64,000 bases of DNA from Cytophagales bacterium (GTDB taxonomy: Bacteria; Bacteroidota; Bacteroidia; Cytophagales; JAHDFW01). Under the pieces are notes generated by a model. The model was not told the origin of the DNA. It saw only the letters and a program-made list of their open reading frames with translations, and searched no databases. The position numbers and the translations under genes were made by a program. Shown here piece after piece: positions 45,315 to 59,600 of the stretch (its first letter is position 1; the number at the start of each line of letters is the position of its first letter). The stretch lies in NCBI GenBank assembly GCA_965277185.1, contig CBDICC010000026.1, positions 13,079-77,078 of the forward strand, in the 5' to 3' direction.

Positions 45315-45323
45315 TATAATTGT

Positions 45324-45547
45324 TTTTCGGTTTTTCGGTTTCTCAGTTCTTCAGTTTCTCGGTTCTTCAGTTCCTCAGTTTTTCGGTTTTTCGGTTCTTC
45401 GGTTCTTCGGTTCTTCGGTTTTTCGGTTTCTCAGTTTTTCGGTTTTTCGGTTCTTCAGTTTTTCAATTTCTCAGTTCCTCAGTTTTTCGGTTCTTCAGTT
45501 CTTCGGTTCTTCGGTTCTTCAGTTTTTCGGTTTCTCAGTTCCTCAGT
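45324..45547. repeat. tandem array of 28 degenerate 8-bp units (TYYTCRGT)
   Basis: Counted unit by unit; variants TTTTCGGT, TCTTCAGT, TTCTCAGT, TCTTCGGT, TCCTCAGT, and one TTTTCAAT. Confidence 0.97.
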
Positions 45548-45549
45548 TT

Positions 45550-45891
45550 CTAATTTTTCTTCCTTAACTAGCAACTGAATAACGGATCAACTGAATAACT
45601 TTTTCACACAATTCTTCAGTTCTTCCGTTTCTAATTTTTCTTCCTTAACTAGCAACTGAATAACGGATCAACTGAATAACTCTTTTTTACAATTCTTTGG
45701 TTTCTCAGTTTCTCAGTTTCTCGGTTCTTCAGTTCTTCAGTTTCTCAGTTTTTCGGTTTCTAATTATACTTTCTTAACTAGCAACTGAATAACGGATCAA
45801 CTGAATAACTTTTTCACACAATTCTTCAGTTCCTCAGTTTCTAATTTTTCTTCCTTAACTAGCAACTGAATAACGGATCAACTGAATAACT
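45550..45891. repeat. four 51-bp direct repeats separated by short octamer runs
   Basis: CTAATTTTTCTTCCTTAACTAGCAACTGAATAACGGATCAACTGAATAACT at 45550, 45631, 45760 (variant) and 45841; spacing 81/129/81. Confidence 0.95.
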
Positions 45892-46003
45892 ATTTTTTAC
45901 AATTCTTCGATTTCTCGGTTCTGTAGTTTAACATTACTTGATGAATTTTGTTTCACCTAATTTAATAAGGTAAGCCAAAGTCATTTTACTAAATCATAAA
46001 CTT

Positions 46004-47788: not shown

Positions 47789-47815
47789 AAGTTCCCCGAA
47801 CAAGTCGGGGAACTT
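47789..47815. terminator. hairpin between convergent genes
   Basis: AAGTTCCCCGA-ACAAG-TCGGGGAACTT. Confidence 0.75.
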
Positions 47816-52135: not shown

Positions 52136-52567
52136 ATGACAAAAGCTAAAATCAATACTTCTGTTGGAACAATGGAAGTAGAGTTATATGACAATGATGC
52201 GCCTAAAACGGTTGAAAACTTTGTGAAATTGGCAACTGAGGGATTTTATAATGGATTAAACTTTCACAGAGTGCTTCCTAATTTTGTAATTCAAGGTGGA
52301 TGTCCTGATGGTACCGGAGCTGGTGGCCCAGGTTACTCTATCGATTGTGAATTAGATGGTGAATTACAATATCATGATCGAGGAGTACTTTCTATGGCGC
52401 ATGCAGGACGAAATACTGGTGGATCTCAATTTTTCGTTTGTCACAGTAGAGATAATACATCTCATTTGGACGGAAACCATACTTGCTTTGGAAAAGTAGT
52501 AAATGGGGTTGAAGTGATTGACTTGGTAAAAGAAGGAACGGCTATTGAATCTATCGTGATTGACTAG
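52136..52567 (+). CDS. cyclophilin-type peptidyl-prolyl isomerase
   Basis: FYNGLNFHRV, FVIQGG, LSMAHAGRNTGGSQFF, HLDGNHTCFG. Confidence 0.96.
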   Translation: MTKAKINTSVGTMEVELYDNDAPKTVENFVKLATEGFYNGLNFHRVLPNFVIQGGCPDGTGAGGPGYSIDCELDGELQYHDRGVLSMAHAGRNTGGSQFFVCHSRDNTSHLDGNHTCFGKVVNGVEVIDLVKEGTAIESIVID

Positions 52568-52679: not shown

Positions 52680-53216
52680 TTATTTGACAAATTGTGTTCT
52701 TAATAGGGAGAAGATATGGCAATCAATCAATTCATCATCTTTTAGAATATAGTTGGGCAGGGTAGCGTCGTGGGAAAATCCGTTGTTAACCAGTGGATAT
52801 TGCGTTTCTTTTTCTCCTTCGTATGATTGCGCGATAATTCGATTTACTTTACTATAGTTTGAAAAAACATACTCCAAACCTTGGTGCAAAGCACTGGTTA
52901 CGGCGCCTGATTTCCAATATTGTTCTGAAACAAAATAGCCGATTTCTGCGTTGTTATGCCACGCACGTTGTTTAAATGAAATATTAAGACCTCCAATCAC
53001 TTCATTTTCATTGACGATTGCAAAGTATTTGGTTCCTTTTGATTTGGTTTTAATGCGATGAATCCAATCTTCCAGTCGATTTCGTTCTAACCGATTGGGT
53101 AAATAGTCATCACAGTTGGATAGATAAGATTGGCTTTGAAAAATTTCGGATAACCTATCAAGGTATCCAAAGCGCCAATTTTGAAGTTCGATGTTATTGC
53201 CTGATCCTCGTCCCAT
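52680..53216 (-). CDS. GNAT N-acetyltransferase, RimJ/RimL family
   Basis: AEIGYFVSEQYWKSGAVT, NGFSHDATL. Confidence 0.8.
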   Translation of the reverse strand: MGRGSGNNIELQNWRFGYLDRLSEIFQSQSYLSNCDDYLPNRLERNRLEDWIHRIKTKSKGTKYFAIVNENEVIGGLNISFKQRAWHNNAEIGYFVSEQYWKSGAVTSALHQGLEYVFSNYSKVNRIIAQSYEGEKETQYPLVNNGFSHDATLPNYILKDDELIDCHIFSLLRTQFVK

Positions 53217-53390: not shown

Positions 53391-53870
53391 ATACTAAATT
53401 TCATCTTGACTACGGTTTAATATTTAACTTTCTATCTAAGCGGTACAATATTAAAAATATGTGATTTTTCTCGTTTGAAAGTGCCTTTTCGCTTCTGGGT
53501 TCTAAAACAAAGTATTTCTCCTATAGTCGAAATGACTTTCTAATTATGAGGGAATACTAAATTTTATCTTGACTACGGTTTAATATTTAACTTTCTATCT
53601 AAGCGGTACAATATTAAAAATATGTGATTTTTCACGTTAGAAATGCCTTTTGAGCTTCTGGTTCCTAAAACAAAGTATTTCTCCTGTAGTCGAAATGACT
53701 TTCTAATTATGATGGAATACTAAATTTTATCTTGACCAGGGTTTAATATTTAACTTTCTATCTAAGCGGTACAATATTAAAAATATGTGATTTTTCTCGT
53801 TTAGAAATGCCTTTTGAGTTTCTGATTCCTAAAACAAAGTATTTCTCCCATAGTCGAAATGACTTTCTAA
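53391..53870. repeat. three tandem 163-bp non-coding repeats
   Basis: Units start at 53391, 53554 and 53717 (ATACTAAATT...); near-identical, with substitutions and single-base indels. Confidence 0.97.
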
Positions 53871-53888: not shown

Positions 53889-54050
53889 TCAAACCCGAAT
53901 CCCGATCACGCAAAGATCATCTACTTGCTCTTCTTTGCTTTCTTCCATCCATTGATTGTTGGCGGATTCTAAATGGGATTTCTGTTCAGGCATCGCGCGA
54001 GAAGACTCTGATAGTTCGCCTAACAGATATTTTGTGATTTTAGCCTTCAT
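53889..54050 (-). pseudogene. isolated C-terminal fragment of a SpoIIE/PP2C (RsbU-like) phosphatase
   Basis: Manual translation MKAKITKYLLGELSESSRAMPEQKSHLESANNQWMEESKEEQVDDLCVIGIRV*; the M.EQK..L......W.....EQVDD..VIGIRV tail is typical of SpoIIE domains. Confidence 0.65.
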
Positions 54051-54061
54051 ATCTACGCAGG

Positions 54062-56563
54062 TTACTTCTTTAAGAATAATTGATTGTACATTTTCAAAAC
54101 ATCCTGCTCATTAAAATTTAATTTCAGATTCTTAATCCAGACGTTCTTGTCTCTTAAATTAAAGTTCATCAAATGTTGACGTGATCCAATTATTTCAGAG
54201 GAGACATCCACGCCATAACGGGTAATATGCCTTAAAGAAGAGGTCTTATTATTTTCTTCAATATCCCACGCTTTGATGGAACCTTTACTACTAAACTGGT
54301 TCGTAATCATACAACTATCACATGAATAAACGTTTTTTCCTTCCATATTATACAACGAACTCGTTATTCGTTCAGAAAACCAATTATTATCATAATATAC
54401 AAATTCATCCATGTCAAAATTGAATTCTGGACTCAACCAATCTGTCATGGGAGAACCATTAAACGAATACAACCTTTTGGTAAGCAGATCCTTATAAAAT
54501 TCCTCCCACCGAAAGAATTTTGCATAATATTTTGGAATTCGATAGGAGAGTACGCCAACATTAGTATTCCATTTATAGGTATAAACGTAAATAGAATCTT
54601 GCTTAGGCAATTCCAACACCAATGCGCCTTTACCGTCGTAAAATTTTATTTCGCTTGATTTATTATCTGATTCCATAAACCCTTCACTTAGCTCTGGAAA
54701 GCGCATCAGGCGCTTTTTCTGTCCCACATCTTTAATTATCTTCCCATTTGGATCCAAGATTTGCTTTGTAAATTGTCGATAACCAAATGCATTGGCAGGA
54801 CCAATAATCGTTGGACTCAGCGTTAGTTTTAACTCATATTGAAAGTTTAAATCTCTATCTACACAACCAAAACCATTGTCCTGATCGTACAACACAGCAT
54901 AGCCATTGGAAAACTCAGGGAGCCTACTACCTGAAATATCTACTAGTCCTTTTTTTGTGGAAGTTTTTACTTTATAATATTCTTTATAAGAAGGCGGAAC
55001 TTCTATTTCTCCTTGGGTATTGATGAGTCCATAGCGTTGCTGATCATAATGGATTTTACCTGATTTATCAATGATTTTAAAGGTGGCTACTCCTTCTTTA
55101 AAATCTCCAAATGCCAGCCTAAAATTAACCTCTTTAAATGTTAAGAGCACATTTCCAGAACCATCCAACACATCAAAAGAGCCTTTTCCATTGCTTAAAT
55201 ATGGCTTAGTAATCTGGACTTTTAATCCTTTACACTTTCCTTCGTAATCACTATTAACCCACAAAGGCCCTTTAAGAGAGTCTTCATTTATTTTCTTACC
55301 CAATAAATTTACTTTGGACTTACTAAAGGCGTAATATGGACGATTCTTAACGAATTTCTTGTAATTGGTCTGGGCTTTAATGTTGGCAATTTCTTCTTTC
55401 GTAAAATAAGCACCTCTCTTCCTATTTGGAATGCGTGCGGATTCATATTCTAGCAAATCTTGGTAAATGATCGCTACAAATTCTTGGGCAAAAACCTCTT
55501 CTTTTACACGCTGTAAATCAAAGCCATTCTTTGTTGAATCCACGGCAATTTCAAAGAATGCATTTCGTGTCCCATTTTTGTAGGTTACCAGAATATATGG
55601 GCTCTTTCGAACTATGGCTATATTTATTGAAACCAGCTGGTCTATAGATTTAAAGTTCTTTCGAACTGCCAGCATTGTATTAATCGTTTCATCCCTAGCT
55701 TTTAAATCAATATGCAAATAATAAAAAAATGAAGATGGATCATCGTCGTATTCTGAATACTTTCTTACGGTATATGGTCTTGATTTTAAATCAAAATAAG
55801 AACGCATTTCGTCCTTTTGATTCATTTTTAGCAAGTCTTGCACCAATGATTCTCCATACTTTTTTAAATCCGAAATTGTCCGAGCAGGCTTTTTAATACT
55901 TAAAGACTCATATTCCATAAATACTTTGAGCGGAATCATCTTTGAAAAAAGGGGGAATACCTGATCTGAATAGGTAATGACATTCCACTTTGACTCTTTT
56001 TTTCTTTTATAAAACAAAAATTGAATGGTTCCAGAGGAAGAATAGAAGTTACCTGATTCTTCTTTTTGATAATAACGTAATCCATGGAAAACAGATGGAT
56101 GTAATTCATCCGGATCAAATCCCATTACGGTACTCTCGTTATGGGCTCCATTTAGTTTTCTCACTAATTGGTAATCATTTTTATTTGAGGGCACTAAAAT
56201 TCGATCCTGTACTTTTACATATACTTTTACAAACGAATATTCCGAAATTGTCTTTGATTCATTAATTGAGTCTATTTCTTGTCCAAAATACTTAATTGTG
56301 CCAAGTCCTTTTCTTGATGTCAGTAACTTAAACTGTCCATCAACCATGTCTGGTTGTTTGGACGAAACATCTGCTAAAGTTTGTTTAAAGCTTGTTATAT
56401 TCCTGCTGTTTAACGCTTCGAAATATCCATTGATTTTTTCTTTAATAAATTCTTCTGTGGGTTCATTCCCTTTTCCATATGAATTTAAACAGCTGCATAA
56501 ACAAAAAAGAACGCACAATAAGAGCGTTCCTTTTCTAAATCGGTTAATTCTATAGTGTTGCAA
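54062..56563 (-). CDS. large secreted protein with C-terminal WG-like repeats
   Basis: Signal or lipobox-like LCSC; FKEGVA, YGLINTQGEI, FSNGYA, LSEGF. Start moved to TTG 56563 to avoid overlap with icmF (uncertain). Confidence 0.68.
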   Translation of the reverse strand: MQHYRINRFRKGTLLLCVLFCLCSCLNSYGKGNEPTEEFIKEKINGYFEALNSRNITSFKQTLADVSSKQPDMVDGQFKLLTSRKGLGTIKYFGQEIDSINESKTISEYSFVKVYVKVQDRILVPSNKNDYQLVRKLNGAHNESTVMGFDPDELHPSVFHGLRYYQKEESGNFYSSSGTIQFLFYKRKKESKWNVITYSDQVFPLFSKMIPLKVFMEYESLSIKKPARTISDLKKYGESLVQDLLKMNQKDEMRSYFDLKSRPYTVRKYSEYDDDPSSFFYYLHIDLKARDETINTMLAVRKNFKSIDQLVSINIAIVRKSPYILVTYKNGTRNAFFEIAVDSTKNGFDLQRVKEEVFAQEFVAIIYQDLLEYESARIPNRKRGAYFTKEEIANIKAQTNYKKFVKNRPYYAFSKSKVNLLGKKINEDSLKGPLWVNSDYEGKCKGLKVQITKPYLSNGKGSFDVLDGSGNVLLTFKEVNFRLAFGDFKEGVATFKIIDKSGKIHYDQQRYGLINTQGEIEVPPSYKEYYKVKTSTKKGLVDISGSRLPEFSNGYAVLYDQDNGFGCVDRDLNFQYELKLTLSPTIIGPANAFGYRQFTKQILDPNGKIIKDVGQKKRLMRFPELSEGFMESDNKSSEIKFYDGKGALVLELPKQDSIYVYTYKWNTNVGVLSYRIPKYYAKFFRWEEFYKDLLTKRLYSFNGSPMTDWLSPEFNFDMDEFVYYDNNWFSERITSSLYNMEGKNVYSCDSCMITNQFSSKGSIKAWDIEENNKTSSLRHITRYGVDVSSEIIGSRQHLMNFNLRDKNVWIKNLKLNFNEQDVLKMYNQLFLKK

Positions 56564-56603
56564 TAGATTGTATTTATTTAAGTCAAAGCTAATGAATATA
56601 ATC

Positions 56604-59600
56604 CTACATATTCCTTCTATACTGTCCACCAACTTCAAACAAGGCATTGGTAATCTGACCAAGTGAACAATGTTTTCCGGCTTCCATCAAGGCTTCAAAG
56701 ATGTTTCCATTAGTCACTGCAATCTTTTGAATTGCTTCTAATTGAACACTCGATAAATCCTCTTTACTGTCATGCAATGAATTCAACATTTCAATCTGAT
56801 ATTGCTTTTCTTCTTCGGTAGCACGGATTACCTCGTCTGGAACAATAGTAGGAGAGCCTTTAGAACTTAAAAACGTATTTACCCCGATTATAGGGTATTC
56901 TCCGTTGTGTTTTAAGGTTTCATAATACAAACTCTCTTCTTGAATTTTTGAACGTTGGTACATCGTTTCCATTGCACCTAATACTCCTCCACGTTCCGTA
57001 ATGCTTTCGAATTCCAAAAGAACCGCTTCCTCAACCAAATCGGTTAATTCTTCAATAATGAACGACCCCTGAAGTGGGTTTTCGTTTTTAGCCAATCCTA
57101 ACTCTCGGTTGATAATCAACTGAATGGCCATAGCTCGGCGTACAGACTCTTCTGTAGGCGTTGTAATGGCTTCGTCGTATGCATTAGTATGCAATGAATT
57201 ACAGTTGTCATAAATTGCGTATAGCGCCTGTAATGTAGTTCTAATGTCGTTAAAGTCAATTTCTTGTGCATGCAATGATCTACCAGATGTTTGAATATGG
57301 TATTTCAACATTTGAGCACGAGGATTTGCTCCGTACTTTTCTTTTAAGGCTTTAGACCAGATTCTACGTGCCACTCGTCCAATCACTGCATATTCCGGAT
57401 CAATTCCATTGGAGAAGAAGAATGATAGGTTTGGACCAAACTTATTGATGTCCATCCCTCTACTCAAGTAATACTCTACATAAGTAAATCCATTTGACAG
57501 TGTAAGAGCAAGTTGTGTAATTGGATTTGCACCCGCTTCAGCTATATGATAACCCGAAATCGACACGGAATAGAAGTTACGAACGTTCTTATCAATGAAA
57601 TATTCCTGCACATCTCCCATCAACCTTAACGCAAACTCTGTAGAGAAAATACATGTGTTTTGTGCCTGATCTTCTTTTAAGATATCGGCTTGTACCGTAC
57701 CTCTAACTTTCGCAATGGTTTCATACTTGATCATATTATAGGTCTCCAAATCAAGTACTTCGTCACCAGTTACACCCAGTAACATTAACCCTAAACCATC
57801 GTTTCCTTCTGGAATATCTCCTTGATAGTTTGGTCTTGCAATATTCTGATCTTCATATTTGGCCTTCTTTACTGCTTCAACCTTACTTTCAAGTTTGTTT
57901 TCTTTGATGAATTTTTCACATTCCTGATCAATGGCTGTGTTCATGAAGAAACTCAACAACATCGGTGCTGGACCGTTAATGGTCATGGAAACAGATGTTT
58001 TCGGATTGGTTAATTCAAATCCTGAATACAATTTTTTGGCATCATCCAAGCAACAAATTGATACACCTGCATTTCCAATTTTACCGTAAATATCAGGTCT
58101 ATGATTTGGATCATTTCCATATAAAGTCACAGAATCAAACGCAGTAGAAAGTCGTTTTGCAGGCATTCCTAGACTTACATAGTGAAAACGACGATTGGTT
58201 CGTTCCGGACCTCCTTCACCTGCAAACATTCTAGTTGGATCTTCTCCTTCTCGTTTGAAAGGGAATAATCCAGCAGTATATGGAAATTCTCCTGGTACAT
58301 TTTCTTGCAAGGTCCAATTCAATAAATCACCCCAGCTTCGGTATTTCGGAAGGGCAATTTTAGGGATTTGCTGATGCGAAAGCGATTCAGAATGGGTTTT
58401 GATACTCAATTCCTTATCTCTTACTTTAAATTTATATTCTGGAGCTTTGTAAAGGCTCTTTTTGTTTTCCCAATTCGTTATTATATCCCAATAATGTGGG
58501 TTTAAATCCTTATGAACATCGTTGAATTTAGTGATTAGCATTCGCAATTCATCCGAAGACTTTTCTTCACCAGCATTTGCGTCTGAAGTCAACATGTCAT
58601 CTCCTCCAAATAGTTTGATGGCTTGATTTAATCCATAAAGCTGATCCGCTATATCGGATTGTTTCTTTGCCATTTCATCGTAACCACGGTTATTATCTGC
58701 GATTTCAGAAAGGTAACGTACACGCTTAGGTGGAATTACAAAGATTTTCTCACTTTGCTCTGCACTTATTTCAAAGCTTGATTTCAATTCAGCGCCGGTT
58801 TTCTCCACCACTTTGTCCATAATGGCCTTATACAGCGTATTTGTGCCCGGATCATTGAATTGAGAGGCGATTGTTCCATACACTGGAATTTCATCGTCAT
58901 GCGCTTCCCAAAGGTTATGATTTCGTTTGTATTGCTTTTTCACATCTCGCAATGCGTCCAATGCTCCTCGCTTATCAAACTTGTTGATCGCCACTAAATC
59001 AGCGAAATCCAACATGTCGATTTTTTCTAATTGAGTTGCTGCTCCAAATTCAGGCGTCATAATGTACAACGAAGCATCTGAGTGATCTAGAATCTCCGTA
59101 TCTGACTGACCAATCCCAGAAGTTTCCAGAATAATCAAATCATAGTTAGCCGCTTTTAAAATATCTAAAGCCTCTTGAACGTGTTTGGATAAGGCCAAAT
59201 TTGATTGTCTGGTAGCCAATGAACGCATAAACACTCGAGGGTTGCGAATGGAGTTCATGCGAATTCGATCTCCAAGTAATGCTCCACCTGTCCTTTTTTT
59301 AGAAGGATCAACGGATACAATGGCCAACGTTTTTTCAGGAAAGTCAATTAAAAAACGACGAACCAACTCATCTACCATCGAAGATTTTCCAGCACCACCG
59401 GTACCTGTGATCCCTAAAATAGGAGTAGAGAACGCTTTTGAAAGTGCATGTACTTTTTCAAGTTCAGCTCGACTTTCTTCTGGATAGTTCTCTGCTGCTG
59501 AAATTAATTTCGCAATCGCCGGAGCAAATTTATCTTTCAAATGCTCTACTTCACCATTCAAGTTTTCACCCGTTGGAAAATCGCATTTCTCCATCATGTC

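Follow-up and report, generated by a model that had tools for sequence, protein, structure and literature searches.

A 163-bp tandem array in a Cytophagales genome probably consists of worn palindromic repeats linked to an Ssn-type nuclease

SsnA of Neisseria is a 94-aa single-domain GIY-YIG nuclease (cd10448) that binds its target, NTS (CGTCATTCCCGCGMAVGCGGGAATCYRG, core CGTCATTCCCGCG..GCGGGAATC, containing dRS3), only as a single-stranded DNA (ssDNA) hairpin and cuts a few nucleotides upstream of it (Chenal et al., Nat Commun 2025, PMC11893778). No base matters more for SsnA binding in Neisseria than the C that follows the hairpin clamp, and SsnA homologues across phyla are flanked by Ssn-related motifs (SRMs) in an SRM-ssn-SRM architecture (PMC11893778), for which a search motif has been published (HGTCWYN(0-2)YYVSBRHN(0-5)WNVSBRGN(0-2)RNCYNB). 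Here we describe a tandem array of a 163-bp non-coding unit at positions 53391-53870 of a 64,000-nucleotide (nt) stretch of a Cytophagales genome (the window, to which coordinates without a contig number refer). The genome comprises 7.27 Mb in 64 contigs, cited below by C-numbers, with 36.8% GC. A literature search with the exact words of the repeat returned the SsnA study as the only relevant paper.

We favour, with a probability of roughly two in three, a reading in which the 163-bp units are worn copies of a palindromic DNA repeat linked to an Ssn-type nuclease, triplicated locally, and not an RNA gene. The repeat is very probably a divergent member of the Ssn/SRM repeat-nuclease system and would work like it, forming a subclass that the published motif misses.

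The array, its hairpins and its folds

The array consists of 2.9 head-to-tail copies without an assigned strand (Tandem Repeats Finder: period 163, 94% matches, score 844, span 53391-53870): copy 1 at 53391-53553, copy 2 at 53554-53716 and copy 3 at 53717-53870. The units are 94-96% alike, with a mean column identity of 96% in the three-copy alignment, and two 1-nt indels cancel each other, leaving every unit at 163 nt; the exact periodicity described in a first-pass annotation of this DNA therefore stands. Because 163 is not a multiple of 3, and because the only open reading frames (ORFs) overlapping the array (51 aa on the minus strand and 76 aa on the plus strand) are short and find no support as genes, a coding repeat is implausible, as had been argued from the frame-breaking indels. 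The array is genuine and not a product of assembly. In two public runs of the source sample, Logan unitigs cross the junction of copies 1 and 2 (53447-53595) as well as that of copies 2 and 3 (53604-53769), which argues against an artefact, and k-mer depth is higher over the parts that the copies have in common. One Hi-C DNA run contained no reads at the array locus.

Every unit retains a single intact half-site, on the minus strand, of the form TTAGAAA-GTCATTTCGAC-TA(T/C)(A/G)-GGAGAAAT-ACTTTGT. The genome census places these half-sites at 53514-53536 (GTCATTTCGACTATAGGAGAAAT, C26:66592-66614), 53677-53699 (GTCATTTCGACTACAGGAGAAAT, C26:66755-66777) and 53841-53863 (GTCATTTCGACTATGGGAGAAAT, C26:66919-66941), all on the minus strand, and the variable loop is the sole difference among them. 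The first is built from a GTC anchor, a 5-bp clamp (ATTTC/GAAAT), a tandem GA/GA, a closing C-G pair and a 4-nt loop, flanked by TTAGAAA on its 5′ side and ACTTTGT on its 3′ side; the recognition hairpin of the unit can be written 5′-TTAGAAA GTC ATTTC GA C NNNN G GA GAAAT A-3′. Copy 3 departs from the other copies after GACTTTCTAA, which places the end of the array 7-10 nt 5′ of the final GTC anchor on the minus strand.

The opposite arm of the palindrome is degenerate. In copy 2 it corresponds to GTGATTTTTCACGTTAGAAATGC (53624-53646, plus strand), which MAFFT aligns with the left arm of the closest single-copy relative in the genome (C46:10368-10391) and at which the nhmmer alignment starts only from the inner arm; equivalents lie ~163 bp to either side. 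Upstream of it are the left half of an outer stem (TTGACTACGG, 53569-53578, plus strand) and an AT-rich hairpin specific to the locus (TTTAATATT...AATATTAAA, 53579-53618, plus strand). TTGACTACGG complements the loop region of the half-site on the minus strand. Nothing related to it occurs elsewhere in the genome, and it probably represents what is left of a second inverted arm. When the unit is compared with the genome by BLAST, only its positions 117-160 match anything beyond the three copies. Its 5′ two-thirds, including the TTTAATATT/AATATTAAA hairpin, have no other genomic copy and yet are common to all three units, which shows that they are the product of duplication in place and not of three separate insertions.

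These elements overlap with a multibranch structure proposed in the first-pass annotation, which had read the array as a tandemly amplified structured non-coding RNA (ncRNA) of ~125 nt with a promoter in each copy. Every stem named there is present in the minimum free energy (MFE) structure of copy 2 (-30.2 kcal/mol), namely UUGACUACGG/CUGUAGUCGA, UUUAAUAUU/AAUAUUAAA, AGAAAUGC/GUAUUUCU and GUGA/UCAC, and the details reported for the other copies are accurate as well: the outer stem (UUGACUACGG/CUGUAGUCGA) has one mismatch in copy 1 and two in copy 3, and the GUGA/UCAC arm pairs fully in copy 2 only. However, the right stem halves CUGUAGUCGA and GUAUUUCU are parts of one minus-strand half-site read on the plus strand, and the partner arm GTGATTTTTCACGTTAGAAATGC includes both GUGA/UCAC and AGAAAUGC.

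Small RNA genes, each transcribed from its own plus-strand promoter into such an RNA, would be in keeping with the copy-2 fold, with the preference for the plus strand (-30.2 kcal/mol, z -2.26, versus -24.7 kcal/mol, z -1.56, for the minus strand of copy 2), with a TAAATTTY word directly 5′ of each outer stem, and with the ~150-nt tandem ncRNA units known from UG27 systems in Bacteroidota (bioRxiv 10.64898/2026.09.22.753630). We nevertheless regard this reading as improbable. Copies 1 and 3 adopt differing structures at -26.2 and -20.9 kcal/mol, within ~1 s.d. of the mean of the copy-2 shuffles (-22.7 ± 3.3 kcal/mol), so these two are no better folded than shuffled sequence, leaving copy 2 as the sole copy with the full multibranch fold. 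Thirteen pairs of the copy-2 fold vary; eight of these are disrupted in one or more copies, and one change is compensatory. Together with the poor folds of copies 1 and 3, this argues that the multibranch fold is not conserved.

Other expectations of an RNA gene fare similarly. No Rfam 15 family matches the window at its gathering score, and relaxed thresholds produce only chance-level matches in the array and at 13 loci of the repeat family, to hairpins of miRNA and plastid models. The proposed -7 box does recur once per unit as TAAATTTY, but it lacks the terminal G of the Bacteroidota consensus TAnnTTTG and a TTG upstream at -33, and a scan of the array found neither a sigma-70-like promoter nor a terminator. 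A reverse transcriptase is not encoded nearby, the UG27 motif AUCN7UANAG is absent from the array, and outside the locus only the palindromic repeat arm of the unit has relatives. With a fold that varies among copies, no Rfam match and an off-consensus -7 box, tandem ncRNA genes are not supported; the alternative offered alongside it, a non-autonomous ssDNA mobile or recombination element, came closer, in that each unit retains an intact Ssn-linked recognition hairpin on the minus strand.

The repeat family and a GIY-YIG nuclease gene

A genome-wide census by nhmmer and by pattern identified ~85 genuine half-sites at 27 loci, 26 of them intergenic. Family loci are ~77-nt palindromes, GTCATTTCGAC-N4-5-GGAGAAAT(C/A)TATTGT-loop-ACAATA..ATTTCTCC-N4-5-GTCGAAATGAC, and their half-site consensus is GTC-ATTTC-GA-C-NNNN-G-GA-GAAAT-(C/A), in which the base after the clamp is C in 61 sites and A in 20, including those of the window. 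With GTC-ATTTC on one side and GAAAT-(C/A) on the other, the ~85 sites have the layout of SRM/NTS repeats, oriented hairpins in which a GTC(AT) anchor precedes the palindrome and (A)TC follows it. In 17 cases the two arms of one palindrome carry different clamps and each arm is still self-complementary, which identifies the small hairpin within an arm as the conserved fold.

Comparison across genomes leads to the same hairpin. A relaxed pattern (GTCATNNCGA-N4-8-GAGNNATMT) occurs in 59 of 251 genomes of the same order, 21 of which hold 10-131 copies, with ~0 matches to the reversed control pattern; its distribution is very patchy, even inside one genus. Both variable clamp positions are complementary in 69 of 81 distinct sites, versus a chance expectation of 6%, and in 70 of the 81 the interior begins and ends with complementary bases. 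The six clamp types (ATTCC, ATCTC, ATGTC, ATTTC, ATCCC and ATGCC) covary with their opposite strands, as in ATTCC/GGAAT and ATGTC/GACAT, marking the site as a folded hairpin and not a mere conserved word. The conserved hairpin comprises a 5-bp clamp, an invariant 5′-GA opposite 5′-GA, one closing pair and a 3-5-nt loop. By general principles of nucleic-acid structure, we take the GA/GA element to be tandem sheared G·A pairs.

The exact pattern GTCATTTCGAC-N3-6-GGAGAAAT extends to many phyla, with more than 120 loci among the matches listed, in Flavobacterium, Mucilaginibacter, Pontibacter, Ignavibacteria, Desulfobacterota, Nitrospirota, Chloroflexota, Verrucomicrobiota, Gammaproteobacteria, Clostridia and one Bathyarchaeota metagenome-assembled genome (MAG). 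Among these listed matches (loci L018-L137), the 25-nt word GTCATTTCGACCGAAGGGAGAAATC is letter-identical in MAGs of Desulfobacterota, Nitrospirota, Chloroflexota, Ignavibacteriota, Riflebacteria and Bathyarchaeota, a conservation unusually strong for a non-coding repeat that suggests horizontal spread or very tight constraint by an enzyme.

Short palindromic units, dispersed in a genome and patchy among related genomes, could also be miniature inverted-repeat transposable elements derived from an insertion sequence with GTCATTTCGAC as its terminal inverted repeats. This is the least probable of the explanations that we weighed: no pair of copies in the census encloses a transposase gene, target-site duplications are not evident at the array edges, and the covariation of the internal clamp points to a folded hairpin instead of a transposase-binding end.

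The genome encodes three single-domain GIY-YIG proteins of ~100 aa that, by sequence, appear to be of the general SsnA-like type. One of them, the 101-aa product of C2:44088-44393, matches PF01541 only (E 1.6e-14), with the GIY, YIG, Arg and Glu motifs visible, and its gene has six half-sites of our repeat within 600 bp, on both sides. One half-site is on the coding strand, 70 nt before the start codon, and its flank, TTAGGAA-GTCATTTCGA, matches TTAGAAA-GTCATTTCGA in the window. The protein matches the UPF0213 structure 1zg2 weakly, and source names read only ‘GIY-YIG nuclease family protein’. Of 20 homologous genes in relatives, 8-9 are accompanied by GTCAT..ATC hairpins no more than ~200 nt away, in most cases on both sides, and further gene-adjacent repeats occur in genomes G057, G151, G094 and G037. 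At the level of whole genomes, a homologue (E<=1e-10) is present in 16 of the 21 repeat-rich genomes versus 61 of the 230 others (odds ratio 8.9, Fisher p 9e-6, uncorrected for phylogeny).

The association with a GIY-YIG gene bears on a further alternative, a repetitive extragenic palindrome (REP) or bacterial interspersed mosaic element (BIME) moved by a REP-associated tyrosine transposase (RAYT), that is, an IS200/IS605-like Y1 enzyme. In its favour, the family consists of extragenic palindromes, found mostly on the downstream side of genes (16 contexts are tandem, 7 convergent and 2 divergent; 23 of 25 scorable loci follow one gene or more). Three Y1_Tnp genes are present in the genome, and another enzyme could be at work in the five repeat-rich genomes that have no Ssn-like gene. 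However, the repeat is near none of the three Y1_Tnp genes, its sites have no 5′ GTAG, and it does flank the GIY-YIG gene both here and in relatives. Moreover, the palindrome that flanks the Y1 gene at C27:~277.5 kb is not this repeat but one of its own (ATATCGAGCGCGTT..), arranged in tandem units of 206 bp, and we give the RAYT explanation little credence. That locus is a second, unrelated pairing of an enzyme with tandem palindromes in the genome: at C27:~276.4-277.9 kb, a gene for a 181-aa RAYT-like Y1 transposase is preceded by at least four tandem 206-bp units with the palindromes AGATATCGAGCGCGTT..AACGCGTTCGATATCT and GCGCGTTTTAGYGAAACG.., the first of which has 10 matches on the contig.

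The other two Ssn-like GIY-YIG genes, encoding 96 and 106 aa (C34:207363-207653 and C44:352821-353141), lie outside the window in the regions C34:206900-207850 and C44:352400-353600, each inside a tandem array of private hairpins, one with ~110-bp units containing TCCCCGAacaggTCGGGGA and the other with ~230-bp units containing TTTCGCGAGGAACGAAGCGATC. These private repeats are confined to their own loci (6 and 9 sites) except for one solo hairpin of the C34 type, and the C2, C34 and C44 genes look like three cognate gene-repeat pairs in one genome. The solo copy is a perfect hairpin in the window at 47793-47811 (GTTCCCCGAACAAGTCGGGGAAC), the only one with the C34 core outside the C34 locus, and could equally be an ordinary terminator stem. 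Next to tRNA genes at C6:149400-151260, four tandem 436-bp units each encode an 83-aa YhbQ-like GIY-YIG protein; the fourth copy of the gene breaks off precisely where a GTCATTTCGA hairpin copy with a TTTAGGAA flank begins, which suggests that the hairpin element inserted or recombined there.

Several observations weigh against linking the array to an Ssn-type nuclease. The predicted ssDNA hairpin is weak, at -2.6 to -3.6 kcal/mol with z above -1.8 (nearest-neighbour DNA parameters), and NTS reaches -8.9 kcal/mol (z -4.25) in the same calculation. The window sites have A after the clamp and not C. The published SRM motif finds NTS but neither the window sites nor canonical sites, and it gives 6 matches in this genome versus 12 in the reversed control; it misses the sites because their interior is not fully Watson-Crick. 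The C2 protein is, from its sequence, only a candidate for the cd10448/SsnA clade or for specific homology to Neisseria SsnA. Homologues at E<=1e-10 are missing from 5 of the 21 repeat-rich genomes, and a nuclease gene lies within 8 kb of 1 of 120 random repeat loci from other genomes, a background level in keeping with dispersed repeats. Finally, array edges fall 10-60 nt from hairpins at no fixed distance to the anchor, and thus nothing ties the nuclease to the duplication itself.

Origin and setting of the array

The three copies arose by local tandem duplication, and local duplication also seems to have occurred at 12 other family loci. In all, 13 of the 27 loci are multi-unit, with array periods of 163-735 bp, such as the six 204-bp units at C37:10040-11110 and the 197-bp array at C44:676472-677243. 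Different arrays have unrelated spacers, indicating that each array arose locally. Arrays of two copies read hairpin-spacer-hairpin, and the copies share 10-60 nt of flank to each side of the hairpin; some units carry microhomology-mediated internal deletions. Both features fit slippage or unequal recombination between neighbouring copies. At C37:10461-10500 and C44:676881-676900, single units have lost the hairpin interior through deletions between short direct words (GAAAT, ATTTCG); such losses within otherwise regular arrays give direct evidence of hairpin instability in vivo. An ORF in the C24 array raised the idea of small-peptide genes in the spacers, which we rejected, as spacers are unrelated and the window unit has no plausible ORF.

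The proposed history and activity of the window units would run as follows. The plus-strand partner arm would have decayed, and the minus strand would have kept one intact recognition hairpin. Slippage or unequal recombination between neighbouring hairpin copies would have duplicated the unit in tandem to give three. Whenever the minus strand becomes single-stranded, in replication, DNA uptake or repair, the half-site may fold, by analogy with SsnA and NTS in Neisseria, into the 5-bp clamp, tandem G·A pair, C-G pair and tetraloop. A small single-domain Ssn-type GIY-YIG nuclease could then bind this hairpin and, if it behaves as SsnA does, cut a few nucleotides 5′ of the GTC anchor. This enzyme is likely to be the C2:44088-44393 product, whose gene is flanked by the same half-site, and its predicted target word would be TTAGAAAGTCATTTCGACTACAGGAGAAATACTTTGT in minus-strand ssDNA.

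The nuclease might also produce the tandem amplification directly, if an Ssn-type nick 5′ of GTC on ssDNA primed template switching or re-replication and so yielded head-to-tail copies. We consider this unlikely, although it would explain the 13 array loci among 27, the three Ssn-like genes inside cognate arrays and the edge of the window array. The end of the window array so close to its last anchor is a suggestive hint, in a single case, of a junction set by the nuclease. If true, nuclease-driven amplification would be a previously undescribed enzyme-driven route to tandem repeats in bacteria, including arrays that resemble neisserial intergenic mosaic elements (NIMEs), which in N. meningitidis genomes are arrays of 50-150-bp repeat units bounded by dRS3.

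The array occupies the 3′ intergenic region of a gene for an 866-aa protein with no significant Pfam family (54062-56662, minus strand), its upstream neighbour, and lies between two same-strand genes. The downstream neighbour is a GNAT acetyltransferase gene (52680-53216, minus strand; PF13302, E 2.4e-10), and a 53-aa ORF at 53889-54050 on the minus strand, which had been called a broken gene fragment, has no Pfam match. The statement that all flanking genes are on the minus strand applies to the nearest genes but not to a cyclophilin gene on the plus strand (52136-52567; ORF list and Pfam). The neighbourhood also includes methylmalonyl-CoA mutase, a setting of chromosomal housekeeping genes and not of a prophage. 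For comparison with an empty site we sought the flanking GNAT gene in a genome of the same genus (G001), where it had no match. At 45322-45920, 7.5 kb from the array, the window also contains a large octamer repeat (GTTTTTCG-type) with 81- and 210-bp higher-order units that is unrelated to the hairpin family.

The intergenic position is what one would expect of RNA hairpins that evolved locally as stabilisers or terminators of transcript ends between same-strand genes and were then duplicated by chance, and T-runs do follow some family members, for example at C44:676563. We judge this explanation to be highly improbable: local evolution does not account for the recurrence of an identical 19-25-nt half-site on both strands and in different phyla, the covariation falls inside half-sites and not across the long hairpin, and no terminator-like site was found in the array. 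As a worn, nuclease-linked DNA repeat, the array is unlikely to serve a dedicated cellular function; at most it acts as a hot spot for recombination or nicking, or provides an incidental transcript-end hairpin.

Implications and comparison with known systems

Our analysis removes the array as a lead for a new class of ncRNA. It points instead to a large SRM subclass in Bacteroidota, also present in many other phyla, with an A/T clamp and an invariant GA-opposite-GA interior. As this subclass escapes the published motif, motif-based surveys would miss genomes such as this one, with its ~85 sites. The three cognate gene-repeat pairs and the RAYT with its own array make the genome a convenient test bed for nuclease specificity, and the same genome could show whether such enzymes drive tandem amplification. 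The site may also be of use for ssDNA tools, as a short, low-GC recognition hairpin with a non-Watson-Crick core.

Among other tandem systems, the ncRNA arrays of UG27 reverse transcriptases resemble the window array in being tandem structured non-coding units of ~150 nt in Bacteroidota. They adjoin a reverse transcriptase and two accessory ORFs, and each of their units carries AUCN7UANAG...UUYA motifs, but no reverse transcriptase or accessory genes accompany the present array, the AUCN7UANAG motif does not occur in 53391-53870, and the locus is chromosomal instead of prophage-borne. REP/BIME-RAYT systems share with our family extragenic palindromes that are clustered and in tandem, as well as a cognate enzyme gene flanked by its own repeats; here, however, the enzyme fold is GIY-YIG and not HUH/Y1, GTAG is lacking, and the Y1 genes are without this repeat. 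NIMEs are likewise intergenic arrays of direct repeats in which every unit is punctuated by a nuclease-type hairpin, but they are mosaics of shared RS modules, whereas each array described here is an exact tandem duplication made locally, with a period of 163-735 bp and spacers that no other locus shares.

The differences from NTS lie in the site itself. Our hairpin is not fully Watson-Crick in its interior: it combines an A/T-rich clamp of 5 bp with the invariant GA opposite GA, a single closing pair and a small loop, and it is predicted to be of low stability. Most half-sites are arranged as inverted pairs that make up a long ~77-nt palindrome, and the window copies end in A, not in the binding-critical C. 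Like NTS, dRS3 and SRMs, however, the repeat sets a short hairpin between a GTC(AT) anchor on the 5′ side and an ATC frame on the 3′ side, it reaches tens to more than 100 copies per genome and it is patchy among genomes. As in SRM-Ssn systems, a gene for a ~100-aa single-domain GIY-YIG protein has the repeat on both sides, and gene and repeat co-occur significantly at the genome level.

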